Assembly: GCA_963806175.1 (NCBI GenBank)
Contig: CAWDXA010000011.1
Span: forward strand, 602,065 to 666,064
Reading direction: 5' to 3'
Origin: an uncultured Chloroflexia bacterium
GTDB taxonomy: Bacteria > Chloroflexota > Limnocylindria > Limnocylindrales > CSP1-4
Length of the DNA: 64,000 nt
The notes beneath the pieces were generated by a model. It worked only from the letters and a program-made list of their open reading frames with translations, did no database searches and was not told the origin of the DNA. The first letter of the stretch is position 1; each line of letters opens with the position of its first letter. Made by a program: the position numbers and the translations under genes. Shown here piece by piece: positions 35,011-58,132 of this stretch.

Positions 35011-35013
35011 GGG

Positions 35014-36854: not shown

Positions 36855-37352
36855 GTGGGCGAACACATCTCGTTCGTGGTCAACGGCACACCCCGGGAGC
36901 TGGACGTCGAGCCCAGACGGCTGTTGGTCCAGGCCCTCCGCGAGGACCTGGACCTGACCGGGACCCATGTCGGTTGCGACACCAGCCAGTGCGGGGCCTG
37001 CACCGTCCACGTCGACGGCATGGCCGTCAAGTCGTGCACGATGCTGGCCGTCCAGGCCGACGGCTCGGACGTCCGCACGATCGAGGGGCTCGCCGACGGC
37101 GAGACGCTCCACCCGCTCCAGGCCGCGTTCTGGGAGAAGCATGGCCTGCAGTGCGGGTTCTGCACGCCGGGCATGATCATGACCGCGGCCGACCTGCTGG
37201 CGCGCAACGCGGATCCGTCCGACGACGAGATCCGGCACGCGATCGAGGGCAACATCTGCCGCTGCACCGGCTACCAGAACATCGTCGCCGCCGTCCGCGA
37301 GGCGGCCCGCGTCGTCCGCACCGACGGCGCGCCGGTCGCGGCCCAGGGCTGA
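36855..37352 (+). CDS. coxS: Form II CODH/xanthine-dehydrogenase-family small subunit, [2Fe-2S]
   Basis: AGGAGG is followed by GTG 36855. The protein has [12 protein letters not shown] and [10 protein letters not shown]...CRCTGY and is intact. Confidence 0.9.
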
Positions 37353-37363
37353 GGAGAAGCGCC

Positions 37364-39768
37364 ATGGCAGTCGACGTGCTCGGCTCCCCGGTCAAGCGAA
37401 CCGAGGACCCCCGGTTCATCACCGGCAAGGGTCGCTACCTCGACGACATCAAGCTCCAGAACATGGCCCACATGGCCATCCTCCGCAGTCCGTACGCCCA
37501 CGCCAACATCAGGTCGATCGACACCTCGGCGGCGAAGCGCGATGCCCGGCGTCATCGCCGTCATCGTCGGGGCCGACATCCCGTACAACCCGCTGCCGAT
37601 GGCCTGGCCGGCCGGCGGCTCGTCGGGCATCCAGAACAACGTCAACACGCCGCGCGCGCTGGCCACCGACAGCGTCAAGTGGACCGGCGAGGGCGTCGCG
37701 GCGGTCGTCGCCGAGACCCCGGAGCAGGCGGTCGACGCGCTCGAGGCGATCGCCGTCGACTGGGAGCCGCTGCCGGCCGTGGTCGATGCCGAGAAGGCCA
37801 CCCAGCCCGGCGCGCCGCAGCTCCACGAGAACGCCCCGAACAACGTCGTGTTCGTCTGGAACGTCGGCGACAAGGCCGGCACGGACGCCGCCATCGAGTC
37901 GGCCGAGGTCGTGGTCAGGCAGCGGATCGTGAACCAGCGGCTGATCCCGAACCCGATGGAGGTCCGCGGCGACATCGGCCTGTACAACCCCGGCACCGAC
38001 GAGTACACGGTCTGGATGTCGAGCCAGACGCCGCACATCCAGCGGCTGCTCCTGACCGCGTTCGTGACCGGCATCCCCGAGCACAAGGTGCGCTGCATCT
38101 CCCCGGACGTCGGGGGCGCCTTCGGAACGAAGATCTTCTGCTACGCGGACATGGCCCTGGTCATGTTCGCCAGCAAGGCCATCGGCGGACGCGCGGTCAA
38201 GTGGGTCGAGAGCCGCCGCGAGAGCTACGGCTCCACGATCCACGGCCGCGACCACATCACGTACCTCGAGATCGCCGGCACGCGCGACGGCCAGGTCACC
38301 GGGCTGCGGGTCAAGACCTACGCGAACCTCGGCGGCCGGCTGTCGACCATCGGCCCCGGCATCCCGACCACGCTCTACGGACGCGTCCTGTCGGGGCCCT
38401 ACAAGTTCCCGAACGTGTCGTGCGAGGTGACCGGCGTCTACACGAACACGACCTTCGTCGACGCCTACCGCGGCGCGGGCCGACCCGAGGCGACCTATGT
38501 CGTGGAGCGGGCCATGGACCTGTTCGCGGCCGAGATCGGGATGGACCCGGCCGAGCTCCGCCGGCGCAACTTCATCGCGCCGGACCAGTTCCCGTACGAC
38601 AACCCGTCCGGCCTCGGGACGGCCGTCAACGGCGAGAAGATCTTCATCGACTCGGGCAACTACGAGCCGGCGATGGACAAGGCGCTGGCGACCGTCGGCT
38701 ACAGCGGACATGGCCGCGAAGAAGGCCGAGGCCCGGGCGCGTGGCAAGTACCTCGGCGTCGGCCTGTCGACCTACATCGAGGTCTGCGGCGTCGCGCCGT
38801 CGAAGTGGATCGGCGCGGTCGGCGAGGGCTGGGGCGCCGCGATGTGGGAGTCGGCCAACATCAAGGTCCACCTGACCGGCAAGATCATCGCCACGGTCGG
38901 CACCCAGCCGCAGGGCCAGGGGCACGAGACGACCTACGCCCAGGTGATCTCGCACGAGCTGGGCGTGCCGATGGAGGACGTGATCGTCCAGCACTCGGAC
39001 ACGCAGGGCACGCCGTTCGGCTACGGCTCGTACGGCAGCCGGACCAGCTCGGTGGGCATGACCGCCGCGGTCAAGGCGGCGGCCAAGGTCCGCGAGAAGG
39101 CACGGCGGTACGCCGCCCACATGCTCGAGGCGAACGTCGAGGACATCGAGGTCGACGGCGCCAACTACCGGGTCAAGGGGTCGCCGGACAAGGTCAAGAC
39201 CATCCAGGAGATCGCGTTCGCGATCGATCTCGGCTTCAGCCTCCCGCCCGACATGGAGCCGTACCTCGACGAGACCGCCTATCACGACACGCCGAACTGC
39301 ACGTGGCCGTTCGGCACCCACATCGCGGTCGTGGAGGTCGACGAGGAGAGCGGGGTGGTCGACCTCGTCCGCTACGTCGCGGTCGACGACGTCGGCAAGA
39401 AGATCAACCCGCTGATCGTCGACGGCCAGCTCCACGGCGGGATCGCCCAGGGTGTCGGCCAGGCGCTCTGGGAAGGCGCGATCTACGGCGACGACGGCCA
39501 GCTCCAGTCGGGCTCGCTGCTCGACTACGCGCTGCCGCGGGCGTCGTGGTTCCCGAACCTCGAGCTCGACGAGACGGTCACGCCGTCGCCCGTCAACCCG
39601 CTCGGCGTCAAGGGCGTCGGCGAGGCCGGGGCGATCGCCAGCACGGCGGCGGTCTCCAACGCGGTGATCGACGCGCTGCGTCCGCTCGGCATCCGCCATC
39701 TCGACATGCCGTACACGGCGCAGACCGTGTGGCGGGCGATCCAGGGTTCGAAGGGAGGCCGGGCGTGA
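37364..39768 (+). pseudogene. coxL: Form II CoxL-like molybdopterin large subunit (substrate unknown), 2 frame shifts
   Basis: It starts MAVDVLGSPVKRTEDPRFITG. The form II signature AYRGAGR is at 38463-38483. The breaks are at ~37540 and ~38705, and the pieces are ORFs 36677-frame, 37542 and 38497..39768. Confidence 0.9.
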
Positions 39769-40632
39769 TCCCCGCGGCGTTCGACTACCAGCGCTCGGCC
39801 ACGCTCGACGACGCGCTCCGGGCCATCTCCGGCGCGAAGGGCACGGTCAAGTTGCTGGCCGGCGGCCAGAGCCTGCTGCCGCTGCTCAAGCTCCGGCTCG
39901 GATCGGCGGACCTGCTGGTCGACATCGGCCGGCTGGCGGAGCTCAAGGGCGTCCGTCCGCTCCCGGACGGCAGGCTGGCGATCGGCGCCATGACCACGTA
40001 CAGCGAGCTGGCCGAGTCAGCGGCCAGGAACTACGGGCTGCTCCGAGACGCGCTGCCGACGATCGGCGACGTCCAGGTCCGCAACCGGGGCACGGTCGGG
40101 GGCGCGATCGCCCATGCCGACCCGCGTCTGACCTGGCCGCCTGCCTGCTGGCCCTCGACGCCGAGATCGTCGCCCGCTCGGTCAGGGGCGAGCGGACGAT
40201 CCCGATCGACGGGTTCTTCACGGGTCCGTTCTCGACCGGGCTCGCGTCCGACGAGCTGATCACGGAGGTCCGGCTGCCCGGCCCCCGCGACGACGCCGGG
40301 TCGGCCTATGCCTGCCTCGAGCAGCCGGCCTCCGGCTACGCGATGGTCGGCGTGGCAGCGGTCGTGTTCGTGGCCGGCGACGGCTCGATCGCCGGGGCGA
40401 ACGTCGCCCTGACGGGCGTCGGGCCGACATCCCGTACCGGGCTCGGGCCGTGGAGGCGGCACTGGCCGGCTCGGACCGCTCGGCCGCGTGGCCATCCGGG
40501 CGGCCGCGGCGCACGCCACCGACGGCGATCGACGTCGTCGGTGACATCCATGCCGACCCGGCCTACCGAACGGCGATGGCCGCCGTCTACACCCGCCGCG
40601 CGATCGAGGCCGCCCTCGCCCGGCTCGCCTGA
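39765..40632 (+). pseudogene. coxM: Form II CODH-family medium (FAD-binding) subunit, frame-shifted
   Basis: GTG 39765 overlaps the coxL stop. It has LLAGGQSLLPLLKLRL, VRNRGTVGGAIAHADP and the C-terminal DIHADPAYRTAMAAVYTRRAI (ORF 40450..40632). The breaks are at ~40125 and ~40430. Confidence 0.85.
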
Positions 40633-41727: not shown

Positions 41728-42646
41728 ATGCGCGACCGCGACCAGCGCCCAGCCGGCACCCGTTCCATCGAGGCGATCCAGGACGACTTCCGCGCCCGCA
41801 ACTACATCGCGGACCGGTCGGTCGCCACGGCCGTCTTCCTGGCCCTCGAGCTCGAGCGGCCGCTGCTGCTCGAAGGCGAGGCCGGCGTCGGCAAGACCGA
41901 GCTCGCCAAGGTGCTGGCGGCGGCGCTCGACACCCGCCTGATCCGCCTCCAGTGCTACGAGGGCCTGGACGTCAACACCGCGGTCTACGAGTGGAACTAC
42001 CCGCGCCAGATGCTCGAGATCCGGCTGCTCGAGGCGCGTGGCGAGGCCGAACGGGCTACCGCCCACGACATCTTCGGGCCCGACTTCCTGATCCGCCGGC
42101 CGCTCCTCCAGGCGCTCGAGGCGGCCGACGGCAACGCGCCGGTCCTGCTGATCGACGAGATCGACCGGGCCGACGAGGAGTTCGAGGCGTACCTCCTCGA
42201 GATCCTGTCGGACTTCCAGGTGACGGTCCCCGAGATCGGCACGATCCGGGCCGAACGCGCCGCCCCGGGTGATCCTGACCTCGAACCGGACCCGCGAGGT
42301 CCACGACGCGCTCAAGCGCCGCTGCCTGTACCACTGGATCGACTACCCGACGGCCCAGAAGGAGTACGAGATCGTCCTGGCCAAGGTGCCCGAGGCTCCC
42401 GAGCGCCTGGCCCGCGAGGTCGTGGCCTTCGTCCATCGCCTGCGCCAGGCCGACCTGACCAAGGTCCCGGGGATCGCCGAGACGCTCGACTGGGCGGCCG
42501 CGCTCCTGTCGCTCGGGGCCCGCGAGCTGGCGCCGGAGCTCGTCGACGAGACCCTCGGCGTCGTCCTCAAGTACGAGGAGGACATCCGCCAGGTCCGCGG
42601 CGACGGGACCCGGCGGTACCTGACCGAGGCCGCCGCCGGCGGCTGA
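41728..42646 (+). pseudogene. coxD: MoxR-type AAA+ ATPase (CoxD-like), one frame shift
   Basis: It has Walker A EGEAGVGKTELA and Walker B VLLIDEIDRAD, then ILTSNRTREVHDALKRRCLYHWIDYP in ORF 42269..42646. The break is near 42265. Confidence 0.85.
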
Positions 42647-42661
42647 CCGACCCGTCCCAAG

Positions 42662-44057
42662 GTGCAAGCCATGCCGGATCCCGCGATCGTCAAGGCGCCC
42701 TGGGGGCCCGAGGTCGACGGGCGCCGGCTGCTCGGCGAGGCCGTCGGGTTCGGCCGGTCGCTCCGGGCGGCGCGCCTGTCGATCGACCTCGGCGCCGCCG
42801 TCGACTTCGCGCGCGCCCTCACCCTGGTCGACATCGCCGATCGCGAGCAGGTCCGGGCGGCCGGGGCCGCCATCTTCGTTCGCCGGCGCGACGACCGGCC
42901 GTCTACGACGCCGCCTTCGACCGCTGGTGGCGCCGCCGTGCCGGCCAGGTCGACGCAGGAGTTCCAGCCCTCCTCGCTCCGTCGCGAGGAAGAGGCCGCC
43001 GCCGAGGAGGAGGTCCAGGGCGCGACCCCGCCGGAGCCCGGGTCCGAGCAGGCCACGATGCGCCCCGAGGAACGCGGCACGCCGATCCCCTCCGATTCCG
43101 ACGAGGACGCCGACGACGAATCGCCGATCGAGGGCGTCGTGGTCTCGCCCGACGCGTACTCCCGCGGCGAGGTCCTGCGCCACCGCGAGTTCGACCGGAT
43201 GACGCCCGGCCGAGCTGCGCGAGGCCGAGCGCCTGGTCGACCTGCTCGTCCCGCGGCTCGAGCGTCGCCGGACGCGCCGCTACGAGCTCCACACCCACGG
43301 CCGCCGGCTGGCGCCGCGGGCGATGTTCCGGCGCAACCTCGGGACCGGCGGCCAGCTGCTCTCCTGGGTCTGGCGCCGGCAGATCCGCGAGCCGCGTTCG
43401 CTGGTCGTGCTGTGCGACATCTCGGGCTCGATGGAGCGCCACTCGCGCCTGCTGCTGCGGTTCATCCAGGCCCTGTCGGCGGCGTCGGAGGTGCGGACCG
43501 AGTCGTTCGTGTTCGGGACGCGCCTCACGCGGGTGACTCGGCTCATGCGCGACCGCGACCGCGATCGGGCGCTGGCCCGCGTGGCGGACTCGGTCAACGA
43601 CTGGGCCGGCGGGACGCGGATCGGCGACTCGTTCCGGACGTTCAACCAGCACTGGGCGCGGCGATCGCTGCGGACGTCCGGCGTCGTGGTCGTCGTGTCC
43701 GACGGCTGGGACCGCGGCGACCCGACGATCGTGGCCGCCGAGACGGCCCGCCTCCGTCGCAACTGCCACCGCCTCGTCTGGCTCAACCCGCTGGCCGGCA
43801 CGCCCGGCTACCAGCCGCTGGCCGGCGGCATGCGGGCGGCCTACCCGTACATCGACGACTTCCTGCCGGCCGGCACGGTCGCCAGCCTCGAGCGGCTCGG
43901 CGAGATCCTGGGCGGCGTCCGGGCCGGCGACACGCGACGGGGCAGCGAGGCGGCCGCCCACGCGGCCCTGCCGGCCGACGGACCGCTGGTGTACGGCCTG
44001 CCGGGCGTCGTCGGCGGCGAACCCGTCGATCCCGGAGTTGCGAGGCCACTGCGATGA
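42662..44057 (+). pseudogene. coxE: VWA-domain CoxE-like protein, frame-shifted
   Basis: The MIDAS region is LVVLCDISGSMERHS. VVVVSDGWDRGDP and RLVWLNPLAG lie in ORF 43323..44057. The N-terminal part is in ORF 42662, with additional breaks at ~42900-43210. Confidence 0.8.
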
Positions 44058-45179
44058 AGGAACTGCTCGAGACGCTGGCCGGCTGGGAGCGCGACGGCGT
44101 CGGGCATCGGCCGCGCCGTCGTCGTCCGGACGTTCGGGTCCGCGCCACGACCCGAGGGTGCCGTCCTGCTGTACGCGAGGGACGGCCGGATCGCCGGCTC
44201 GGTCAGCGGCGGCTGCGTCGAAGGGGCGGCCGCGGAGGAGATCGAGCACGCCTGGACGAACGGCCACGCCCGGGTGATCCGCTACGGGATCAGCGACGAG
44301 CAGGCCTGGGACGTCGGGCTCGCCTGCGGCGGCACGATCGACGTCCTCGTCGAGCCGGTCGCGCCGGCCGTCGTGATCGACGCGGCGCGCGGGTCCGTGG
44401 GCGCGAACGGCCACGGCGCGGCGGTCATCACGCCGCTCCCCGCCGACTCGCCGCCGGGCGAGTTCGGGCCGCACCAGCCGGGGCCGGGCGCGCCGCCGGC
44501 GGCCGAGCTGGTCGTCTCGGACGCGGGACGCCTGACCGGCACGCTCGGCAGCGCCGAGCTGGACGCCGCGCTCGTCGTCCGCCGCCACGGAGGCCCTCCG
44601 CCGCGGGCTGTCGCGGACGGTCGAGCTCGGCGGTCGCTCGCTGTTCATCGAGGTCTTCCCGGTCCGCCCGCGCCTGGTCCTGGTCGGCGGCGTCGAGGTC
44701 GCCCGGTCGCTGGTCCGGCTCGCGCGCGAGCTCGGCTTCGAGACCGTCGTGGTCGACGGTCGCGCGTCGTTCGCCACGCCGGAGCGGTTCCCCGACGTGG
44801 ACCGGCTGGTCGTCGGCTGGCCGGACGAGGTCGCCGACGAGATCGGCCTCGGCCCCAACGACGCCGTCGCCGTCCTGTCGCACGACGTCAAGTTCGACGA
44901 GCCGGCGATCGTCGAGGCGCTCCGCCGCGGCTGCCGCTACGTGGGGGCGGTGGGCTCGCGCAAGACCCAGGCGGACCGGCAGGCGCGCCTCCTGGCCGCC
45001 GGCGTCGCGACGGCCGACCTCGCGCGGCTCCGCGGACCGGTCGGGCTGGACCTCGGCGGACGGGCGCCGGCGGAGACGGCGCTGGCGATCCTGGCCGAGA
45101 TCGTGGCCGAGCGCTACGGCGGCTCCGGCGCCCCGATGCGCGAGCGCGCCCTCGCCGCCGGCGGCGAGGCCGGGCCTGA
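44054..45179 (+). pseudogene. XdhC/CoxF-family molybdoenzyme maturation protein, frame-shifted
   Basis: ATG 44054 overlaps the coxE stop. It has GSVSGGCVEGAAAEE, DVGLACGGTIDVLVEP, a Rossmann part (LVLVGGVEVARSL) and GAVGSRKTQADR. The stop is unclear: the open frame runs on into the next domain. Confidence 0.8.
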
Positions 45180-45805
45180 CCTTGTCGCCGCGCGCAGGCC
45201 GCCGGGACCGACCGTCGCGCTCGTGCTGGCCGCCGGCGCCGGATCGCGCTTCGGCGGCGGCAAGCTGCTCGCGCCGCTCGCCGGCCGGCCGATCCTGCAG
45301 CACGTCCTCGACCCGCTGGCCGCCGCCGGGACTCGCCGACGTGACCGTCGTCCTCGGGCGCGACGCGCCGGCGATCGAGCGGGCGATCGCCTGGCGAACC
45401 GAGCGGCGGGTCGTCAACCCGGACCCGGAGCGCGGCCTGTCGAGCTCGCTCCAGGTCGGGATGGCGACGCGTCCCGGCCGATGCCGACGCGGTCCTGATC
45501 GCCCTCGGCGACCAGCCGCTGGTGGCGGTCGGCGACGATCCGGGCGTTGCTGGCCGCCGCCGTGCGAGCCGTCCAGGCCGGTCGTGGTGCCCGCCTACGC
45601 CGGCGATCCCGGCCGCAATCCCGGTGCTCCTTCGGCGGCGCGGCCTTCCGCCTGGTCGGCGAGGCCTCGGGCGATCGCGGGCTCGGACCGGTCCTGGCGG
45701 CCCATCCCGGACGTCGTGCAGGAGGTTCCGATCACCGGCGACAATCCCGACGTGGACACCCAGGCCGACCTCGCCCGGGCCGTCGAGGCGGCGTGGGCCG
45801 CCCGG
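45136..45805 (+). pseudogene. MobA/MocA-like molybdenum cofactor nucleotidyltransferase domain; boundaries uncertain
   Basis: It has VALVLAAGAGSRFGGGKLLAPLAGRPIL, NPDPERGLSSSLQ, LIALGDQPLV and DNPDVDTQADL. No stop separates it from the XdhC tail upstream or the methyltransferase downstream. The breaks are at ~45330 and ~45480-45620. Confidence 0.6.
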
Positions 45806-46608
45806 GTGCGCGCCAACCGCGAGCAGGTGGAGCGGGTTCGCGAGGTCCCCGACGGAGCCGACTTCTACGCCCCGGTGCGCTCGCTCTTCCGAGCCGACCC
45901 GACGCGAACCGACGACCCGATCCTGGATGTCCTGCTCGACCTGGTCCGGTCCGGCGACCGCTGGCTCGACGTCGGGGCGGGAGCCGGTCGGTTCGCGCTG
46001 CCGCTCGCCCGGGCGCTCGACCCGTCGGGTGGCTCCGTGGTCGCGCTCGACGCGTCGCCCTCGATGCTCGAAGGCTTGCGCGAGATCGCCGAGGACTACG
46101 CGATCGAGAACGTCCGGGCCGTGGAGGCCCGCTGGCCGCCGGCGGACGCCGGGGCCTTCGACAGCGGACGTCGCGCTGATCGCGCACGTCGGCTACGACA
46201 TCGAGGCGATCGGTGCCTTCATCGACGCCCTGGAGGCGACCGCGCGACGCCTGTGCGTGGCCGTCCTGACGGAGCAGCCACCCGCCGCCGCCGCCGACCC
46301 GTTCTGGCCGGCCGTCCACGGTGAGGCGCGGTCGACCCTGCCGGCGCTGCCCGACCTCGTCGAGCTGCTCGTGGCGCGGGGCCGCGAGCCGTCCGTCGTC
46401 CGCATCCTCGGGGAGCCACGCCGGTTCGAGACCGCGCGACGCGCTCGAGGGGTTCGTCCGGCGGCAGCTGTGGATCGACCCGGCCGGCCGCAAGGCGGGC
46501 CGTCTTCGCGCGGCGCTCGACGACCTGGCGATCGCCGACGGTGACGGCTGGACGATCCGCGGGCGACTGCCGACCGATACCGGGGTGGTGACCTGGAGCC
46601 CGCACTGA
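45806..46608 (+). pseudogene. Class I SAM-dependent methyltransferase domain, frame-shifted
   Basis: It has RWLDVGAGAGRFALPLA (motif I) and VVALDASPSMLE, and ends ...GVVTWSPH at 46608. The breaks are at ~46165 and ~46430. The start given is the first in-frame GTG after the MocA DxDT motif. Confidence 0.6.
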
Positions 46609-46765
46609 GCGCACCCTCCCCCGGATGACCCCGTTGCCCCCGAAGGGATGATCCCGCCGGTGGATGGCGGGCCAGGCAATCCGGCGGCGCTCCGGCGGCG
46701 TACGGGGATCGAAGGGCGACGACGGACGCGCTCGATGCACGAGGTGACCCGACCCACGAGACACG

Positions 46766-46795
46766 TTGACGTGCGAACGACCCGAGGCGGATACT
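46766..46795 (+). promoter_or_regulatory. Candidate sigma-A-type promoter for the form I cox operon
   Basis: TTGACG (46766-46771), an 18-nt spacer and GATACT (46790-46795). The -35 lies inside the near-palindrome CACGT-TG-ACGTG. The ATG of coxM is ~150 nt downstream. Confidence 0.4.
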
Positions 46796-46947
46796 CCGCC
46801 GCAGCGCATTCCCAACACCCACCGGACCCCCGGTCGACGCCCCCCGACGTGACCGCCGGCCCGCGATCGTCGCCAAGGTTCTGGGCCCATCCGGGCCGGA
46901 TGGCGCCGACATCGTCCCGCTTGTGCGGGGAGGAGGGTCCCAGCGCG

Positions 46948-47841
<894 letters not shown>

Positions 47842-47845
<4 letters not shown>

Positions 47846-48354
47846 CCACCCAGCACGTCACGGTCACCGTCAACGGCACGACCCACGAAGCCGACGTCGA
47901 GCCTCGACTCCTCCTCGTCCATTTCCTGCGCGACAGCCTCGGCCTGACCGGCACCCACGTCGGCTGCGACACCAGCAACTGCGGCGCGTGCACGGTCCAT
48001 ATCGACGGCCAGAGCGCCAAGTCCTGCACCCGGCTGGCCGTCCAGGTCGACGGCTGCCAGATCAAGACGATCGAGGGCATGGCCGACGAGCCGCACCTCC
48101 ATCCGCTCCAGCAGGCGTTCTGGGACCAGCACGGGCTCCAGTGCGGGTTCTGCACCCCGGGCATGATCATGCAGTCGGCCTGGCTCCTGGACCAGAACGC
48201 CGATCCGTCCGAGGCGGAGATCCGCGAGGGGATCAGCGGCAACCTGTGCCGCTGCACCGGCTACGTGAACATCGTCAAGTCCATCCAGCAGGCGGCCGCC
48301 GAGATGCGGACGGCCGCCGCAACCCAGACCGGCGCGCCGGTCGCGGCCGGTTGA
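47842..48354 (+). CDS. coxS: Form I CO dehydrogenase small [2Fe-2S] subunit
   Basis: ATG 47842 overlaps the coxM stop (ATGA). It has [12 protein letters not shown] and [10 protein letters not shown]...CRCTGY and is intact. Confidence 0.95.
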
Positions 48355-48369
48355 GCGGGGAGTGACGAG

Positions 48370-50758
48370 ATGACCACCGAAGCAGACACCCCGCACGACG
48401 TTCGAGATGGGTGGCATGGGCCACTCGGTCAAGCGCAAGGAAGACCCGCGGATGATCCGCGGCCAGGGCGAGTACATCGACGACGTCAACCTGCCCGGCC
48501 AGCTGTGGCTGGACATCGTCCGCAGCCCGTACGCGCACGCGACGATCAAGGGGATCGACGCCAGCGAAGCGCTCAAGATCCCGGGCGTCCTGGCGGTCGT
48601 CACCGGCAAGGATCTCGAGGGCTACAAGCTCCACTGGATGCCGACGCTGGCCGGCGACATGCAGATGGTGCTTCCGACCGACACGGTCATGTACCAGGCC
48701 CAGGAAGTCGCCGCGGTCATCGCGACCACCAAGTACATCGCCGCCGACGGCGTGGCCGCGGTTCTCGTCGACTACGAGCCGCTGCCGGTCATCGTCGATC
48801 CGTTCAAGTCGCTCGAGCCCGACGCGTTCGTGCTCCGGCCGGACCGCGGACCCGACAAGCAGAACAACCACATCTGGCACTGGGAGTCCGGCGACCGGGC
48901 GGCGACCGACGCCGACCTCGCCGCGGCCGACGTCCACATCGAGCAGGACATCTACATCCCGCGGATCCACGTCGCGTCGATCGAGACGTGCGGATGCGTC
49001 GCCGACTGGAACCCCGTCCGCCAGCAGCTCACGCTCCACATGACGTCCCAGGCGCCGCACGCCATCCGCACGGTGCTGGCGCTCGTCGCCGCCGGCGCCG
49101 GCCTGCCGATCAGCGAACAGAACATCCGGGTGAAGACCCACGACATCGGCGGCGGGTTCGGCGGCAAGGTGCCGGTCTACCCGGGGTACGTCCTCGCCGT
49201 CGCGGCGTCGTTCCTCATCGGCAAGCCGGTCAAGTGGATCGAGGATCGCTCGGAGAACCTCCAGGCCGACTCGTTCGCCCGCGACTACCACATCCACGCC
49301 GAGCTGGGCGCGACCAAGGACGGCAGGATCACCTCGCTCAAGGCGAAGACCATCGCCGACCACGGGTACAGCGACGCCGCGGCCGACCCGTCGAAGTACC
49401 CGGCCGGGCTGTTCAACGTCATCACCGGCTCGTACGACTTCCCGAACGCCTTCGTCGAGGTCGACGGCGTCTACACCAACAAGCCGCCGGGAGGCGTGGC
49501 CTACCGCTGCTCGTTCCGGGTGACCGAGGCCGTCCACGCCGTGGAGCGGATGGTCGACATCCTCGCCCACCAGATCGGCAAGGACCCGGCCCAGCTGCGG
49601 ATGGAGAACTTCATCCAGCCCGAGCAGTTTCCCGTACAAGACCCCGACCGGCTGGTCGTACGACTCCGGGAACTACCCCGCCGCGCTCCAGAAGGCCATG
49701 GACATGATCGACTACGCCGGCCTCCGCAAGGAGCAGGCGGAGAAGCGCGCCAGGGGCGAGCTGATGGGCATCGGCATCAGCAGCTTCACCGAGATCGTCG
49801 GCGCCGGTCCGTCGCACGACTTCGACATCCTCGGGCATCAAGATGTTCGACGCCTGCGAGATCCGGGTCCATCCGACCGGCAAGGTCATCGCGCGGCTCG
49901 GCGTCCAGTCCCAGGGCCAGGGCCACGAGACCACGTTCGCCCAGATCATCTCCGAGGAGCTCGGCTTCCCGGTCGCGGACATCAAGATCGAGGAGGGCGA
50001 CACCGACACCGCGCCCTACGGCCTCGGCACGTACGCCTCGCGGTCCACGCCGGTCGCCGGCGCGGCCACCGCCATGGCGGCCCGCAAGATCCGCGACAAG
50101 GCGCGCAAGCTGGCCGCGCACCTGCTCGAGGCCAATGAAGAGGACCTCGAGTGGGAGCCCGGCAAGTTCAGCGTCAAGGGCTCGCCGGACCGGTTCAAGA
50201 CGATCCAGGAGATCGCCTTCGCGGCCTACACCAACCACCCGCAGGGCATGGAGGCGGGTCTCGAAGCGGTCGACTACTACGACCCGCCGAACCTGACCTT
50301 CCCGTTCGGCAGCTACATCTGCGTCGTCGACATCGACAAGGCGACCGGCCAGGTCCACGTCCGCCGCTTCGTGGCGGTCGACGACTGCGGCAACATCATC
50401 AACCCGATGATCGTCGACGGCCAGATCCACGGCGGCCTGACGATGGGCCTCGCCCCGTCGCTGTACGAGGAGATCACCTACGACGAGCTGGGCAACAACC
50501 TGGCCGGCACGTTCATGGACTACCTGCTCCCGACGGCGGTCGAGACGCCGAGCCTGGGAGACCGGCAAGACGATCACGCCGTCGCCGCATCACCCGATCG
50601 GCGCGAAGGGGGTCGGCGAGTCGGCCACGGTCGGCGCGCCGCCGGCGATCGCCAACGCGGTCGTCGACGCCCTCTGGCATCTCGGCGTCCGCAACGTCGA
50701 CATCCCGATGACGCCCCAGAAGATCTGGGCCATCCTCCACGAGAAGGGCGTGGCCTAG
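48370..50758 (+). pseudogene. coxL: Form I CO dehydrogenase large Mo-Cu subunit, about 4 frame shifts
   Basis: The form I active-site loop VAYRCSFR is at 49496-49519. It also has KRKEDPRMIRGQG. The pieces are ORFs 48370, 48407..50296, 49698-frame and 49843-frame, with breaks at ~48400, ~49640, ~49835 and ~50560. The stop is TAG 50756-50758. Confidence 0.9.
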
Positions 50759-50767
50759 GTCGCCGCG

Positions 50768-51805
50768 ATGACCGCGCAGTCGATCTTCGCAAGGGCCGCC
50801 GAGCTCGAGGCGGCAGGCCGGTCGTTCGTGGTCGCCACCGTCGTGGCGGTCCGGCGGCCGACCTCGGCCCGCCCGGGCGCGTCCGGGATCGTCCATCCCG
50901 ACGGCACGATCGAGGGCTGGGTCGGCGGCAGCTGCGCCCAGCCCGTCGTCGTCCGCGAGGCGCTCCGGGCGCTGGTCGACGGCCAGCCGCGCCTCCTCCG
51001 CCTGTCGAAGGACGTGCCGGCCGAGGGCCGGCGCGGCGACGGGATCGTGGAACTGGTCATGACCTGCCATTCCGGGGGAACACTGGAGATCTACGTGGAA
51101 CCGCACCTGCCTGCGCCGGTCCTGTGGGTGGCCGGAACGACCCCGATCGCGGGCGCGCTCGTCGCGCTCGGTTCGGCGGCCGGCTGGCGCGTCTCGGTCT
51201 TCGACCCGGTCGCCGACCCGGCCGCCTTCCCGGGCGCCGAGCACGTCGGGCTCCGGCAGCCGAGCTCCGGGACACGGACCCGGCGGCGGCGCCGGCCGTC
51301 GTGTCGCCACGCAGGGCGTCTGGGACGAGGAGGCGCCGGCCGCGGCGCTGTCGCGGAACGCCGCCTATGTCGGGCTGGTCGCCTCGCCGACGCGGGCCGG
51401 CGTCGTGCGCGCCTGGCTGCGCGACGAGGCGCGGATCCCGGATGAGCGGCTGGCCGCGCTGCGCGCGCCGGCCGGTCTCGACCTCGGGGCCGAGACGGCC
51501 GAGGAGGTGGCCCTCTCCATCCTGGCCGAGCTGGTCCAGGTCAGGCGCGGTACCGCGACGTTCGTCGCCTCGCCGGGACCGGCGACCCTCGCCGGCGCCG
51601 GCGAACCCGCCGTCGATCGAGCCGGTCGTCGACGACATCGTGCTGCTGGACCCGGTCTGCGGGATGACCGTGGACCGGGCGCACGCGCGGCACCTCGCCG
51701 AGCACGACGGAGTGGTCTACGCCTTCTGCTCGATGGGCTGCCGGACGAGCTTCATCCGCGAGCCCAGCCGCCTATCTGCCGCCCTCGGTATCATCCCCGG
51801 ACTGA
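50768..51805 (+). pseudogene. XdhC/CoxF-family protein with C-terminal YHS (TRASH-type metal-binding) domain, frame-shifted
   Basis: It has GWVGGSCAQPVV and CHSGGTLEIYVEP (XdhC N-terminal domain), a Rossmann part, and then DPVCGMTVDRAHARHLAEHDGVVYAFCSMGCRTSF (YHS) at ~51649-51770. The breaks are at ~51250, ~51590 and ~51757. Confidence 0.75.
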
Positions 51806-51839
51806 TCCGGGCCGCATCTCGTAGCGCTGGAGTATCGGC

Positions 51840-52282
51840 ATGCGTTTCGAAGGCACCGTCCCAATCCGCGCGTCACGTGACCGCGTCTGGGCGTTCGTGA
51901 TCGATCCCCAGCAGGTTGGCCAGTGCGGCCCCGGCGTCGAGAAGATCGAGGTCGTCGACGCATACACACTTCAAGGCGACGGCCAAGGTCGGGATCGGCT
52001 TCATCAGCGCCCGCTTCGTGGTCGACATGGAGTTCGCCGAGTCCGCAGCCGCCGGACCGCGCGCTCATCAAGGCCCACGGGCAGGCGCCCGGCAGCGCGG
52101 TCGACGCGACCGCCGAGATGCGCCTGTCGGACGGCCCGGATGGCACGACCGTCATGGACTGGAATGCGGACGTCAACATCGCGGGGACGCTCGCCAGCAT
52201 GGGTGCGCGGCTGATCGAGGGCACGGCCAACAAGATGATCGGCCAGACCTTCGAGTGCATGCGCGCGAAGCTCGAGGCGTGA
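51840..52282 (+). pseudogene. coxG: CoxG-like SRPBCC protein (CO dehydrogenase subunit G), 2 frame shifts
   Basis: MRFEGTVPIRASRDRVWAFVIDPQQVGQCGPGVEKIEVVD is followed by FKATAKVGIGFISARFVVDMEF and then MDWNADVNIAGTLASMGARLIEGTANKMIGQTFECM (ORF 51923..52282). Confidence 0.8.
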
Positions 52283-52313
52283 CCGATCGGCCCATGGCCG
52301 TGCGCCTCGCCGC

Positions 52314-53255
52314 GTGACCTTCTCGATCGTCGCGCTCGACCCGGCCAGCGGCGACCTCGGCGTCGCGGTCCAGTCGAAGTTCCTGGCCGTTGGTTCGGTG
52401 GTGCCCTGGGCGATCGCCGGGGTCGGCGCGATTGCCACCCAGTCGTTCGCCAACGTGGCATACGGCCCGGACGGTCTGGCGCTCCTGGCCGGCGGGCGCT
52501 CGGCGCAGGATGTCCTGACCCGGCTCGTGTCCGATGACAGTCTGCGCGACCAGCGCCAGGCCGGGATCGTCGACGCCCAGGGCCGCGCGGCGACCCACAC
52601 TGGCCGGCACTGCTTTGCCTGGGCCGGTGGGCGCACCGGCGCGGGTTTCGCGGCGCAGGGCAACATCCTGGCTCGCGCCGAGGTCGTCGACGGGCTCGCG
52701 GACACGTTCCTGGCCGGTGGCCGGCCGTTTCCCGAGTTGCTCGTGGCCTGCCTGGCCGCCGCCGATGCGGCCGGCGGGGATCGGCGCGGTCGCGAGTCGG
52801 CCGCCCTGCTCATCGTCCGTGCCGCGGGCGGGTATGGCGGCGGCAACGATCGATGGCTGGACCTCCGCGTCGATCACCACGCCGACCCGATCGGTGAGCT
52901 GGCCCGCCTGGTCGACCTCCAGCACCTCTACTACGACCGGCCGTCGATCGACGATCTGCAGGCCGTCGACGAGGAGGTCGCCGCCGAGATCCGGACTCTC
53001 CTCGAGTCACTCGGGGCCGGTCCGGGCGGGCGCTTCGGCGCCGTCTACACCCACATGGGCGGCGCCGTTGCTGGCGACACCGAGCCGCGCCCGTTCGTCG
53101 GGGAGTCGCGGCCCTATCCGTCCAACTGGGACGAGCGCTGGCAGCGTGCCCTCGACGACTGGATGGGGGTGGCGAACCTCGAGGAGCGAGCGGCCGCTCC
53201 CGGCTGGGTCGACGGACGCGTGCTCGCGGTGCTGCGCGATCAACGGCCCGCCTGA
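52314..53255 (+). CDS. DUF1028 (Ntn-hydrolase fold) protein with a C-terminal extension
   Basis: GTG 52314 gives MTFSIVALDPASGDLGVAVQSKFLAVG, the typical DUF1028 N-terminus with Thr2. The 313-aa ORF is intact. Confidence 0.8.
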   Translation: MTFSIVALDPASGDLGVAVQSKFLAVGSVVPWAIAGVGAIATQSFANVAYGPDGLALLAGGRSAQDVLTRLVSDDSLRDQRQAGIVDAQGRAATHTGRHCFAWAGGRTGAGFAAQGNILARAEVVDGLADTFLAGGRPFPELLVACLAAADAAGGDRRGRESAALLIVRAAGGYGGGNDRWLDLRVDHHADPIGELARLVDLQHLYYDRPSIDDLQAVDEEVAAEIRTLLESLGAGPGGRFGAVYTHMGGAVAGDTEPRPFVGESRPYPSNWDERWQRALDDWMGVANLEERAAAPGWVDGRVLAVLRDQRPA

Positions 53256-53308
53256 CCGCTCGACCCACCGGCATCGGCCTGCATCGGTCGTCTGCCACAA
53301 TCGGACCG

Positions 53309-53948
53309 ATGGAACGCCTCACCCGCGTGGTCGGCCCGGTCGCGACCAACGTCCACGTCCTGGCCGATGAGCAGTCGCACGAGGCGATCGCGATCGACAC
53401 CGCGACCCCGAGCCTGGCCTGGATCTCCGAGGCGCTGGCCGAGCGTGGCTGGACGCTCAAGCTGATCGTGTCCACGCACGGCCACTGGGATCATATCGGC
53501 GACAACGCTGCGGTCGCGGCCCACACCGGGGCGCCGATCGCCGTCCACCCGCTCGATCGCGACCGACTCGAGCACCCGCGTGCCGCTCTTCGCTCCGTTC
53601 GACATCCCGCCGTCGGTGCCGGCCGTCGAGCTGGCCGAGGGCGGGCTGGTCCGCTTCGGCGACATCCGCCTGCGCGTCCTCCACACGCCCGGTCACACCG
53701 AGGGGTCGGTCTGCCTGCTGTCCGAGGACGACGGCCTGCTGTACAGCGGCGACACGCTGTTCGCGGCCGGCTGGGGCCGGGTCGACCTGCCCGGCGGTCA
53801 CGCCGAGGCCATGGTCGAATCGATCGGACGGCTGGCATCCCTCGACGACCGGGTGGCGGTCTTCCCCGGCCACGGCAAGTCGACCACGATCGGGCGCGAG
53901 CGAGCCTGGATGGAGCTCGTCCGCGACAGCGGCCGGTTGTTCGCCTGA
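53309..53948 (+). pseudogene. MBL-fold metallo-hydrolase (glyoxalase II-like), one frame shift
   Basis: It has STHGHWDHIG (HxHxDH), then VLHTPGHTEGSVCLL and VFPGHG in ORF 53580..53948. The break is near 53580. Confidence 0.85.
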
Positions 53949-53949
53949 C

Positions 53950-54913
53950 TCAGCGCTCGAGTGGTCGCCCGTACGCCGTCGACCGGCGGAAGACCGTGAA
54001 CCCGAGGCGCTCGTAGAGACCGAGTGCGCCGGTCGGGTTCTGGGCGTCCACTCCAAGCATCGCCTCGTCCATCCCGGCATCGCGTACCTTGCGCAGCGCC
54101 GCCGCGGTCAATGCCCGGCCGAGCCCGCGCCGCCGCCACGGTCGGCGCACGCTGATCCGCTCAAGCCAACCACGGCGGACGCCGAGTCGTTCGTTCTCGG
54201 TCGGCCAGATCCAGGTCTCGACGACACCGGCAACGTCATTGCCGTCCCACGCCACGACCCACAGGCCCGTGTCGTTTTCGTCCTGGTCGAACGTCTGGCG
54301 AAACGCCTCTTCGCCCATCTCGTGATGGCCCCAATGGTCCCGGAAGGCCTCGTTCTCGGCCTCGAAGACCGCGCGATGGTGCTCCGGCTGAACGGGTCGG
54401 ACCTCCAGTCCGTCCGGCATCGGCACGGACGGGTACGCGGTCCAGGTCGGTGTGGCGCATCAGGAAGAAATGGCGGACGGGGACGAAGCCGGCCTGCTCG
54501 TACAGGGTCCGTGCACCGACTTCCGGCTCCTCGGCGTCGGCGAGGATCTCCACCGCGCCGTCCGGGTCCTCGACCCGGGCACGCTCCGCCACCCGACGAA
54601 GGCTCCAGTCGAACAGCCAGCGCCCGATGCCGCGGCGGCGCATCTCGGGGGCGACCCGGCCCCACAGGTCGTAGGTGGGCGTGTCGTCGCGCAGTTGCCG
54701 CTGCACGGACGTGACCGCGATCAACCGCCCGCCCGCCTCGACGAGCACCACGTCGCGAGCCGGATCGATGCCTTCGCGCCGCATGGAGAGACGCAGGTTG
54801 TCGGCGGTCGGCAGCCACGGGATGTCGTCGTGGGCGTGGCACTCGCGGACGAGGGCCGACAGTGGCTCGAAGTCCGCGTCGTTCGTGACGAACCGAACCT
54901 GCAGGCCGTCCAT
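53950..54913 (-). pseudogene. Tandem-GNAT acetyltransferase, mycothiol synthase (MshD)-like, one frame shift
   Basis: The N-terminal GNAT is ORF 54236..54913 (RRRGIGRWL). The C-terminal GNAT is ORF 53950..54426 (VRRPWRRRGLGRALT...LGVDAQNPTGALGLYERLGF). The break is near 54430. Confidence 0.65.
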
Positions 54914-54961
54914 CGGCGGCGCGTCCGGCAGGTCGGTCCTGGGTGCTGGTTCCGTGCGCTG

Positions 54962-56058
54962 TCATCGATCGTCTCCGTACTTGCGCGCCATGTGCTCGTT
55001 CACGGATTTCGAGATGATCCGCCAGGTTCGGCGGTGCTCGGCTCGGGCCCGCGGATCGCCCTGGCGGGCGGCGTGGGCCATCTCGCGCTCGAGCTTGCGG
55101 TGACTGGCCAGGCGGTCCTCGCTCAGCCGGCCGTCGGCGACGGCGGCACCCACCGCACAACCCGGCTCGCCGGCGTGCGCGCAGTCGCTGAACCGGCAGC
55201 CGGCCGCCAGGGAGGCGACGTCGTCGAAGGCCGGCGCGAGCCCTTCGTCGGCGCCGAGCACCTCGAGCGCGCGGATCCCCGGGGTGTCGACCAGCAGGGC
55301 GCCGCCCGGGCAACTCGAACAGCTCGCGGTGGGTCGTGGTGTGGCGGCCTCGCGAATCCGAGACGCGGACCTCGGCGGTCTTCTGGCGAGCCTCGCCGAG
55401 GAGGGCGTTGACCAGGGTGGACTTGCCGACACCCGACGATCCGAGGATCGCGGCGGTCGTCCCGGGCCGGAGGTGCGCGAGCAGGTCGTCGAGCCCGGCA
55501 CCGGTCCAGGCGGAGACGGCGACCACCGCCACGCCGGGCGCGATCGCGTCCGACCGCGACCAGCCGCCCGTCGGTGTCGCCGTCGAGGTCGGCCTTGTTC
55601 AGGACGACGACCGGGATGATCGCGCTCGACCAGGCGACCGCCAGGTAGCGTTCGATCCGGCGCAGGTTGAAGTCGTTGTCCAGCCCGGCCACGAGCAGCG
55701 CGACGTCGACGTTGGAGGCCATGATCTGCTCGTCGTCGAGGCCGCTTCCATGGCGGGTCCCGTCCGCGGCCATCCGCTTGAAGACGCTTCGACGCGGGAG
55801 GATCGCCGTGATGACGCCGTCGCCGTCGAGGGCGACCCAGTCGCCGACGGTCGGATAGTCCGACGTCGCCAGCGCCTCGAACCGGAACGAGCCCGAGACC
55901 GCGGCCGGCCGGTCGCCCGCGCCGTCGCGGACGATCGAGGTCTCGCGATGGACGGCGACAACCCGGGCCGGGCGCCGGCCCCGGGCCGCGTGCGGCGCGA
56001 AGGCATCGGTCCAGCCGACGTCCCAGCCGAGGGCGCCCAGCGCGCGACCGTCGCCCAT
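54962..56058 (-). pseudogene. rsgA: Ribosome small-subunit-dependent GTPase A, about 3 frame shifts
   Basis: It has an OB-fold N-terminus (GDWVAL), VVLNKADL, GSSGVGKSTLVNALLG, GRHTTTHRELF, DTPGIR and the zinc knuckle CRFSDCAH..EPGCAV. The pieces lie in the frames of ORFs 55123, 54108 and 54962. Confidence 0.85.
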
Positions 56059-56081
56059 CTCCGGCCCTGCCGAATCGGGGA

Positions 56082-57102
56082 TCACGGCTCGACCTCCGGC
56101 TCGAGTGGCTTGCGCCACGCGGTCGAGCGATAAGCGACCTCGAACCCGAGACGTTCGTACAGCTGGAGCGCACCGTTGGGGTTGTCGGCATCGACGCCGA
56201 GACCGGCGGAGGTCAGGCCGCGCTCCCGAAGACGTCGCAGCGATTCGACGATGAGCGCCCCGGCGAGTCCGCGCCGTCGCCACGGCCGGCGGGTGAAGAC
56301 GCTTCCCAGCCAGCCCCGTTCCAGGCCCATCACCTCGTTCTCGGCAGCGTCGATCTTGTTGAGCACCCCGCCTGCCAGCTCGTTGCCATCGAAGGCTACG
56401 ATCCAGAGCGACAGGTCCGTCGACGGCTGGGCTAGCTGGCGCCCGAGTCGCTCCTCCGATTCGTCGACGCCGCCCCAGTGGTCCTGGAATGCCTCCGCCT
56501 GCGCGTGCCAGACCGCGGGTGCCAGGTCGATCGTGATCGGCCGGATGTCGAGTCCACTGGGCAACGGTTGCTCCGGGATGGCCTCGAGGTTCGGCCTCGT
56601 CATGTCGAAGAAGAACCGCGCCGGGGCGAACCCGGCGGCCGTCAGCAGGGCAACGTCGCCCGGCTGGCTGTCGCCGCTGAACGATCCGAACACGCAAGCG
56701 CCGCCCGGTCCATCGCTCCTGGCAAGCGCGCGACTGCGCCGCTCGCTCTCGGCCAGCAGGGCTGTGCCGATGCCGCGCCGGCGCCACGAAGGGTCGACCG
56801 CGCCATCGATGCGGTATTCGCGCAGCCCGTCCGTCGTCTCGACCCATTCTCGCGACGCGACGGCCACCGGCCGCCCGTCGAGCTCGGCGATCGTGACGTC
56901 GCGAACGGGATCGAAATGAGGGCTCGGATGGGCGAAGCGCACCGCCAGCGACTCGATGATCTGCACGTTCAGGCAGGCGATCGGCCTCGGCCTCCGCGTT
57001 CTCGATGCGGACGATCTCGGCCAGGTCGGGCTCGCCCGCGAAGGGACGCAACCGGAGCCCGGCCGGTGCGGCCCGGGGCATGGCCAACGGCGAGTCGCTC
57101 AT
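56082..57102 (-). pseudogene. Second tandem-GNAT acetyltransferase, MshD-like paralogue, one frame shift
   Basis: ORF 56082..56966 (WRRRGIGTALL and TRRPWRRRGLAGALI...LGVDADNPNGALQLYERLGF) is joined to the N-terminus MSDSPLAMPRAAPAGLRLRPF from ORF 55123..57102. The break is near 56975. Confidence 0.65.
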
Positions 57103-57103
57103 C

Positions 57104-57908
57104 TCAGCCGACCCGCTTGAGCTTGCCGGTCCGCTTGGCGTAGCGCTCGGCGCGGCCGAAGGCCCACAGCCCGAACGGGATGAACACGACGCCCATCACG
57201 ATCAGCGGCCAGACGTCGCCGAACAGGTCGAGGACCGAGGTGCCCTTGAGCAGCCCGGCGCGGACGCCGTGGAGGACGTACGTCGCCGGCGACAGGTGCG
57301 ACAGCACCTGCATCCACGGCGGCAGGATGTCGACCGAGTAGTACACGCCGCTGACCAGCAGCAGGCACGACTGCAGCACGAACGTCATCTGCGCGCCGCG
57401 CTCCACGTAGAGCAGCGGCAGGATCGCCGCGATCATGCCGATCCCGACGAAGCTGAACGAGCCGAGGAGCATGAACGCCAGCACGGTCACCGGGTTCGCG
57501 CCGTGCGAGGTCGAGCTGCGGGAAGAACAGGATCAGCACGATGAGGATGACCGTGGTGTGGACCAGGCCATAGACCATCGCGTACAGGACCGACCCGAGC
57601 AGCTGCGACCAGCGCCGGATCGGCGCCATCATCGTGTACTCGAGGGTGCCCTCCCAGCGTTCGACCGAGATCGTCTCGGCGATCCAGCTGAAGACGACCG
57701 ACAGGTAGTTCCAGAAGATCGCCCCGACCATCAGGGTCAGCAGCAGCGTCGGGCTGCCCTGGTCGGCACCGATGAGCGAGATCGACAGCGCGCCCGCGAC
57801 CGAATAGACCAGGAAGGCGATTTCCCAGCCCCAGTAGCGGCGTGTCAGGAAGAAGTTGCGCTCGATGAAGGCGTACGAGGCCTTCAGCTCATGGGCGACG
57901 ATGGTCAC
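57104..57908 (-). pseudogene. ABC-2-type (DrrB-like) exporter permease, one frame shift
   Basis: MTIVAHELKASYAFIERNFFLTRRYWGWEIAFLVYS... is ORF 57099..57908. The C-terminal half is ORF 57104..57490 (LSHLSPATYVLHGVRAGLL). There are six predicted TM helices. The break is near 57500. Confidence 0.8.
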
Positions 57909-57944
57909 GGGAGGATCTCCAGGTGGGGGAGCTGGCCCGGCCCC

Positions 57945-58132
57945 CTAGCGGGACCGGGCCAGCTCCAGACGGGACTCCGCCGCGATTCGCTCGCCGACCG
58001 CGATGACGCGGCGGCCGATCGACCGGCGGATGGACGAGCGGCCGTCGTCGAGCAGGCGCTCGCGCGCGAGCTCCTCGATCAGTCGCTCCTGGCGCTCGCG
58101 CGCCAGTTCGTAGGCCAACTGGTTCAGTTCAT
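57945..58132 (-). pseudogene. Small coiled-coil-like hypothetical protein (~61 aa) between the ABC ATPase and the permease; needs one indel correction
   Basis: AAGGAGG lies 8 nt before ATG 58132, but the frame reads ATG AAC TGA. A shift of one base gives ...LNQLAYELARERQERLIEELARERLLDDGRSSIRRSIGRRVIAVGERIAAESRLELARSR, ending at 57945. Confidence 0.3.

Follow-up and report, generated by a model that had tools for sequence, protein, structure and literature searches.

Results

The window analyzed here, a stretch of 64,000 nucleotides from an uncultured Chloroflexia bacterium, carries a form I carbon monoxide dehydrogenase (CODH) cluster in which the large-subunit gene coxL is followed by a gene whose product joins an XdhC-type maturation protein to a YHS domain, and then by coxG. 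We refer to this gene as coxF-YHS. It occupies positions 50768..51805 of the forward (+) strand; its ATG start at 50768 stands 9 nucleotides behind the TAG stop of coxL (50756-50758), and its TGA stop (51803-51805) aligns with the stop codons of its orthologues. The host genome (G000; the window lies on contig C11) belongs to the class Limnocylindria (Chloroflexota) and comprises 3.29 Mb in 14 contigs, with 72% G+C and a completeness of 76%. No single frame is open across the whole of 50768-51805. A product of 345 amino acids is obtained by reading through four frame breaks, near 51254, 51302, 51598, and 51763, along a path that runs in frame 2 (50768 to ~51253), frame 1 (to ~51302), frame 0 (to ~51600), frame 1 (to ~51763), and again frame 2 to the stop. 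A first-pass annotation of this DNA had placed an XdhC protein with a YHS domain at 50768-51805, between form I coxL and coxG. The Pfam matches of the stitched product, the AYRCSFR motif in coxL, and the CoxG gene downstream bear this out, and the peptide that it quoted, DPVCGMTVDRAHARHLAEHDGVVYAFCSMGCRTSF, is found at 51649-51753 in frame 1. It had counted three breaks (near 51250, 51590, and 51757), whereas comparison with four intact orthologues gives four.

All parts of the stitched product are encoded on the + strand. The N-terminal XdhC_CoxI domain (PF02625) spans 50810..51001 (residues 15-78) and scores 65.5 bits against a cutoff of 24.3, compared with 63.6 bits for an intact orthologue, P0001. 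It contains the cysteine C56 within a GGSC motif, and a second family-wide cysteine, C100 of a TCHSGG motif, is encoded at ~51065, just 3' of the domain. The XdhC Rossmann domain (PF13478, XdhC_C; 51122..51540, residues 119-256, 94.9 bits against a cutoff of 29.7) includes the breaks near 51254 and 51302. It is followed by an Ala/Pro-rich linker, or tether, of ~25 residues (51541..51642), which is variable in length and contains the third break, and by a YHS domain of ~50 residues (PF04945; 51643..51770, with the match at residues 295-338), which scores 35.8 bits (cutoff, 30.3; E, 7.9e-9) in the stitched product and 35.0 bits in P0001. Among solved structures, the XdhC core has its best sequence match in 2WE8/2WE7 (E, 4.5e-18), and Foldseek pairs the AlphaFold-modeled core of the intact orthologue with the same two structures (E, 1e-17; template modeling score, about 0.55) and with 3ON5 (E, 2e-16). 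The model of P0001 has a mean predicted local distance difference test score of 84, with ~90 in the core and 84 to 91 in the YHS region, which is modeled as a confident small domain made of a beta-hairpin and helices. Linker residues 263-288 fall below 50, and the linker is predicted by this model to be disordered. Across 121 homologues the linker measures 0 to 86 amino acids (median, 21), and about half of its residues are A, P, E, or G. NCBIfam has no family above its cutoff for this protein and none named for CoxF; xanthine_xdhC (TIGR02964) reaches 25 bits against 161.6, and XdhC_rel_AOR (NF045664) reaches 104 bits against 350.

The positions of the breaks are defined by alignment of the window with the four intact orthologues, relative to which the gene has an insertion of two nucleotides near 51254, a deletion of one near 51302, a net insertion of one in the variable linker near 51598, and an insertion of one in the CCC run at 51762-51764. 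Four insertions or deletions (indels) within the 1038 bp of coxF-YHS are what a decaying pseudogene with real breaks might present, and we considered whether this genome has such a gene. The same density of frameshifts is present in coxM, coxL, coxG, and unrelated neighbors, with coxM falling into five frame segments, coxL into four, and coxG into three. By tblastn, the frame segments of coxF-YHS remain 93 to 98% identical in amino acids to the intact orthologue, those of the neighboring genes being mostly 72 to 98% identical to theirs, and in ~100 relatives the gene is one uninterrupted frame of 343 to 348 amino acids. Other genomes of the genus with few contigs, presumably long-read assemblies, are similarly low in completeness (59 to 87%), compared with up to 93% in assemblies with hundreds of contigs, which are presumably short-read. 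Because the neighbors are equally frameshifted and ~100 relatives are intact, we read the four breaks as assembly indel errors and not as gene decay. The spread of the damage over nearly all genes nearby, together with a low completeness despite only 14 contigs, is likewise the signature expected of uncorrected indel errors rather than of the decay of one gene. We therefore rejected the pseudogene reading, which appears extremely improbable where every adjoining gene is frameshifted alike. The window copy would thus be a normal gene, conserved in its lineage, that has been damaged by the assembly, and the whole assembly calls for frameshift-aware gene calling. Throughout the region 42000-58000, comparison with intact orthologues reveals frameshifts in nearly every gene, at about one indel per 300 to 400 bp (4 shifts in coxM, 3 in coxL, 2 in coxG, 1 in the hydrolase gene at 53309-53945, and 1 or 2 in others).

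The fusion itself is not an artifact of stitching, because 17 of 24 genomes of the same genus carry a full-length match in one stop-free open frame, at 76 to 91% identity. Intact examples lie, as in the window, between form I coxL and coxG (L004:1501-2544, 347 amino acids; L003:1492-2529, 345 amino acids), and intact frames were found at 80 species-level Limnocylindria loci. These 80 loci are the best from a search with a four-sequence alignment and are all Limnocylindria, so that they give depth without breadth; a profile built from 15 diverse fusions again retrieved mostly Limnocylindria and added only two divergent sequences. The first-pass annotation had named a stop codon between the XdhC and YHS parts as evidence against a fusion, and there is none in the intact relatives. 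The possibility of two separate genes, one for XdhC and one for a small YHS protein, was rejected on the same grounds, as in the relatives a single frame runs on through the linker without meeting a stop. A large protein collection holds 7339 homologues. The top 120 of these all combine PF02625, PF13478, and PF04945, with the exception of P0085, which is without a precomputed YHS match, and their names do not go beyond "xanthine dehydrogenase accessory factor" or "XdhC family protein." Among 1.84 billion representatives clustered at 50% identity, 495 matches fell below 1e-30, and the best 150 of these included 126 near-full-length cluster representatives. Pfam YHS is present in 111 of the 126, and the fusion, real as it is, is common and not an oddity. 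The cysteines are conserved in nearly all of the same representatives (C56 in 124, C100 in 125), one of which has an HMA domain and five of which have an extra N-terminal MobA-like nucleotidyltransferase. Fusions occur in Chloroflexota, Deinococcota, Burkholderiales, and haloarchaea, and plasmid-borne copies are present in Thermomicrobium roseum, Deinococcus sp. AJ005, Paraburkholderia aromaticivorans, two Caballeronia strains, and the haloarchaeon Natronorubrum bangense.

Some homologues depart from the common architecture. P0134, P0148, P0171, and P0173 (533 to 565 amino acids) are triple fusions of NTP_transf_3 (MobA-like, of the MocA type), XdhC, and YHS, which join the synthesis of the cytidylyl molybdenum cofactor (Moco) to the CoxF-YHS factor. 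P0156 (345 amino acids) has a CopZ-like HMA domain (MSCAHC) at the place of the YHS domain, and the YHS-less homologues P0241, P0249, P0260, P0263, and P0269 have C-terminal tails rich in CC or CxC.

Sequence comparison identifies the window protein as the counterpart of CoxF, not of CoxI. On plasmid pHCG3 of Oligotropha (Afipia) carboxidovorans, its best match is the gene that occupies the coxF place in coxMSLDEFG (34840-35682, 280 amino acids, 39.6% identity). In BLAST comparisons, the Limnocylindria orthologues score 135 to 150 bits against CoxF and 47 to 64 bits against CoxI of O. carboxidovorans, and they reach 177 to 192 bits against the coxF-position protein of Paraburkholderia, which lies in a coxMSLGDE-XdhC/YHS cluster. 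CoxF of O. carboxidovorans OM5 has the same two-domain XdhC core, the 39.6% identity extending over residues 1-260, with both family cysteines, and it is encoded in a form I coxMSL cluster with coxD, coxE, and coxG. It differs in ending after the Rossmann domain, with no linker, YHS domain, or C-terminal Cys. Gene order differs as well, since coxF-YHS directly follows coxL with coxD and coxE upstream, whereas in OM5 coxD and coxE lie between coxL and coxF.

A second XdhC paralogue, frameshifted and without YHS, is encoded in the window at 44274..45150 (+ strand; XdhC_C, 104 bits), about 6 kb upstream and after the VWA_CoxE gene. We considered it as a candidate CoxF counterpart, given that it follows coxE, and rejected it because it is of the CoxI type by similarity. 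Its intact CoxI-type relatives measure ~380 to 400 amino acids and have a duplicated XdhC_CoxI N-domain and no YHS (L045:2707-3891; L058:1111-2283), like mycobacterial 2WE8, and the highest scores of these orthologues are with the proteins that Paraburkholderia and Natronorubrum encode at the CoxI position. The XdhC-like protein of the mycobacterial cox region (the M. smegmatis homologue of Rv0376c; 2WE7/2WE8), which is the best solved match for the core of the window protein, is CoxI-like in architecture, with the duplicated N-domain, no YHS domain, and an identity of only ~30%.

The fused gene is closely tied to form I coxL. We scored the XdhC core and the YHS block with two hidden Markov models (HMMs) built from the family alignment; the Chloroflexota sample was an even draw of 401 genomes, and 58 loci outside the window's own family were fetched, in which the YHS model gave 42 to 86 bits. 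Within Limnocylindria, all 68 of the 80 loci that have enough upstream DNA carry the AYRCSFR motif ~1.26 kb upstream on the same strand. Every evaluable fused gene of the 401-genome draw stands just after a coxL of form I, with AYRCSFR or AYACSFR as its motif; one locus is cut by a contig end. Counted in reverse, 73 of the 401 genomes have a true form I coxL, and 70 of these have XdhC-YHS beside it; in the remaining 3 the contig stops there, in two cases inside the XdhC gene. The plasmid copies agree, all 6 (from four phyla, one of them archaeal) lying in coxMSL clusters with coxG and most also with coxD and coxE. Among the matches listed for the 401 Chloroflexota genomes and the plasmids, no fused copy was found beside another molybdoenzyme. 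An equal occurrence of the fusion next to non-copper molybdoenzymes was what the first-pass annotation had said would speak against a copper role; the copies in all three counts adjoin coxL of the form I type. The informative point of this survey is the restriction of YHS to the CoxF clade. No YHS domain was found on the 16 CoxI-type paralogues in the same loci or at 5 other XdhC loci without form I coxL, and within the surveyed Chloroflexota loci and the window the domain is confined to CoxF-type proteins.

The degenerate DNA pattern used for AYxCSFR gives many chance matches, with a reversed control of the same order. Among its doubtful candidates, G324, G206, G302:C563, and G276 (in frames that are not coxL) and G386 and G181 (with no motif-bearing frame) were dismissed as chance, and six others are true coxL. 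Caballeronia sp. SBC1 appeared to be a counterexample, with no AY.CSFR near its XdhC-YHS gene, and was rejected as such, because its coxL reads AYRCSFM within a full coxMSLGDE-XdhC/YHS cluster. This coxL (plasmid pSBC1_2, L020 3821-6235) keeps the copper-ligand Cys; the PLSDB record of pSBC1_2 has only 2 annotated features, neither of them in this stretch.

The YHS domain presents a candidate ligand set of the pattern D-x2-C-x22-C-x3-C, formed by D296, C299, C322, and C326, to which M301 adds (D-x2-C-G-M ... C-x3-C). The corresponding codons are at 51649 (D), 51658 (C), 51664 (M), 51727 (C), and 51739 (C). Conservation in the 121 homologues is high (D296, 88%; P297, 94%; C299, 93%; M301, 89%; C322, 95%; C326, 98%). 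The canonical TRASH set of four cysteines (C-x2-C ... C-x3-C) is absent, as the first position is Asp (DPVC) instead of Cys. No TRASH family matched the stitched window protein below an E of 0.01 or P0001 below 0.001, and PF24273 (TRASH_HVO_1752_C), which matches 55 of the 126 homologues, does not match P0001. From these features the domain is classed as YHS-type, a relative of TRASH. It shares 57 to 59% identity with YHS domains at the N termini of plasmid-encoded proteins whose annotation is that of P-type ATPases translocating copper or heavy metals. The YHS domain of the adenylyl cyclase of M. phlei renders that enzyme activatable by Cu2+ alone among the transition metals tested, and the copper ligands proposed there (D178, C181, C204, and C208) have the same spacing as D296, C299, C322, and C326 (PMC4626032). 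A second, stronger YHS match (59 bits) occurs elsewhere in the host genome, at G000:C5:82056-82190 (L001, about 1501-1635, minus strand), in an open frame of 110 amino acids that looks like a stand-alone YHS protein.

Discussion

What is known of the copper route to the Mo-S-Cu site of CODH comes only from the phenotypes of mutants and from a model built on sequence, both in a single alphaproteobacterium. The coxF and coxE mutants of O. carboxidovorans make a CODH with full Mo and sulfane sulfur and without Cu, and escort of copper by CoxF was proposed from motifs only (PMC4240915). In that organism, CoxD drives sulfuration of the Mo site, which remains intact in the coxF mutant (PMC4240915). 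A predicted metal-binding domain that is conserved, specific to the CoxF clade, and in most lineages covalently attached to CoxF argues independently, by comparison, for CoxF as the copper-handling step, and with regard to CODH maturation the YHS domain supports CoxF as the likely copper carrier. On balance, we regard the YHS domain as probably a tethered carrier and donor of Cu(I) on a CoxF-type maturation factor. The tethered domain would be charged with Cu(I) by a chaperone or out of the cytoplasmic pool, hold it on its thiolates, and swing the metal to a CoxF core docked on sulfurated apo-CODH, where copper would be placed on Mo-SH and the Cys of AYRCSFR; CoxD (AAA+) and CoxE (VWA), encoded 7 to 9 kb upstream, would act in the same pathway. 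The first-pass annotation had suggested a built-in copper donor or acceptor. The CoxF identity, the linkage to form I CODH, and the ligand set all favor that suggestion, while the binding and donation of Cu(I) by the YHS domain are what we infer from them. A wider version of the idea holds that the tethered YHS domain is a dedicated Cu(I) donor for the Mo-S-Cu center, that a YHS-bearing CoxF is ancestral or normal in most CO oxidizers, and that the YHS-less CoxF of the model organism, with the phytate-based copper route proposed for it, is the exception; we consider the chances of this version to be about even.

Several observations weigh against a copper-donating role. Since O. carboxidovorans CoxF supports copper insertion without a YHS domain, the domain cannot be indispensable to the copper chemistry. 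Solved relatives of the YHS domain do not speak for copper. In the PDB it comes closest to the C-terminal region of phenol hydroxylase (E, 0.03), whose site holds zinc, and no copper-bound YHS structure was among the solved-structure matches of the PDB search. In the crystal of toluene 4-monooxygenase, the YHS region has no metal bound (PMC4626032). The fused gene on p380k of Deinococcus sp. AJ005 (L016 8995-10056) encodes a YHS domain that lacks the first Cys (SPVDGE versus DPVCGM) and keeps the C-x3-C (FTCANC), and this domain may be degenerate or differently liganded. The place of the gene in cox clusters is also partly expected, because the proteins are CoxF orthologues, and the survey was centered on CoxF-like sequences of one phylum and the plasmids. 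The phylum search covered the best 150 of 944 matches, and XdhC-YHS fusions may also occur in other XdhC clades.

Other roles for the domain have to be set beside that of a copper donor. It could be a structural knuckle of the zinc type, or a docking module that holds CoxF on CoxL, CoxE, or CoxD or stabilizes CoxF, and would then carry no copper. YHS/TRASH folds do include structural knuckles, such as ribosomal eL24, which appears among the weak PDB matches; the YHS regions of phenol hydroxylase and toluene monooxygenase are without a known copper role, and O. carboxidovorans CoxF works without one. We nevertheless find this rather unlikely, because the linker is modeled as disordered and varies from none to 86 residues with the domain not packed on the core, and because three Cys with an Asp and a Met do not make up a four-Cys zinc set. 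Moreover, one lineage has a CopZ-like Cu(I) domain instead and others have CC-rich tails, and the nearest sequence relatives outside the family are the YHS domains of copper and heavy-metal P-type ATPases.

In a third role, the domain would sense the copper supply and turn the XdhC core on or off in response, the part suggested for it in the M. phlei cyclase, and would not be a donor. Such a sensor is in keeping with the only biochemical study of a YHS domain, which found Cu2+-specific activation of the attached enzyme via the same set of an Asp and three Cys; the linker in that cyclase, however, has 8 residues (PMC4626032). The long, variable, and apparently disordered linker of CoxF-YHS suits reach better than allosteric coupling, and the replacement of YHS by a CopZ-type chaperone domain in P0156 points to carriage, so that we consider sensing improbable. 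It might also be proposed that the YHS cysteines relay sulfur as persulfide, or bind another metal or a Moco intermediate, for the Mo-S part of the center. The domain is rich in thiols, and a part in the sulfuration of Moco and in protecting the sulfido ligand has been connected with XdhC proteins (PMC4240915). This appears very improbable given that YHS was not found on the CoxI-type and other XdhC paralogues that serve sulfurated Moco enzymes without copper and that sulfuration in O. carboxidovorans depends on CoxD and not on CoxF.

The proposed copper donor is best compared with two groups of known proteins. It shares the D-x2-C-x22-C-x3-C pattern with the YHS domains of Cu/Ag P-type ATPases and of the M. 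phlei cyclase, and differs in that the domain sits on a cofactor maturation factor, held by a long and probably disordered tether, rather than on a pump or a signaling enzyme. The proposed job is that of HMA chaperones of the CopZ/Atx1 type, in which a small thiolate domain carries Cu(I) to a partner and one of which is found at the same place in P0156; the fold and motif are unrelated (an MxCxxC ferredoxin-like domain as opposed to a knuckle of the YHS/TRASH kind). Pfam-based annotation already shows the very common combination of XdhC and YHS, and the only CoxF that has been studied is one without YHS. A literature search returned no paper with both "XdhC" and "YHS" and none with both "YHS domain" and "carbon monoxide dehydrogenase," in agreement with the earlier statement that the fusion is uncharacterized, and the fusion is apparently unstudied. 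At the comparative-genomic level, the interpretation given in the first-pass annotation finds support.

In soil, where Limnocylindria are abundant, the use of form I CODH to oxidize atmospheric CO is widespread among bacteria. If the YHS domain is indeed a Cu(I) donor, the last unresolved step of Mo-Cu CODH assembly becomes testable with one small domain. The domain is a small and expressible handle with which metal binding, truncation, and transfer can be studied and the heterologous production of active CODH improved. The labels now given by PGAP and JGI ("XdhC family protein" and "xanthine dehydrogenase accessory factor") are generic, and a CoxF-YHS label would be more informative.

Neighboring genes

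All genes described here lie on the + strand of the window. The coxL gene of the form I (Mo-Cu) CODH spans 48407..50758, with AYRCSFR at 49496, Ald_Xan_dh_C and MoCoBD_1 domains, and 3 frameshifts. Upstream of it, tblastn with intact orthologues places coxM at 46948-47812, with 4 frameshifts, and coxS, with Fer2 and Fer2_2 domains, at 47842-48354. The coxG gene (SRPBCC/CoxG; PF06240, 67 bits) follows coxF-YHS at 51840..52282, with 2 frameshifts. Farther upstream, the C-terminal part of a CoxE-like VWA protein is encoded at 43323..44057 (PF05762, VWA_CoxE, 195 bits), and a partial gene for a CoxD-like MoxR AAA+ ATPase lies at 42010..42643; the latter is 97.6% identical in two frames, with one frameshift, to an intact orthologue of 307 amino acids. 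Pfam gave no match on the CoxD-like fragment of 127 amino acids, and its assignment to MoxR/CoxD is based on its Walker motifs and its position before coxE. A second CODH-like cluster, in the order coxS-coxL-coxM, lies at 36861-40605, upstream of the coxD, coxE, and CoxI-type accessory genes. Its large subunit has AYRGAGR at 38463, which is form II-like and has no copper-ligand Cys.

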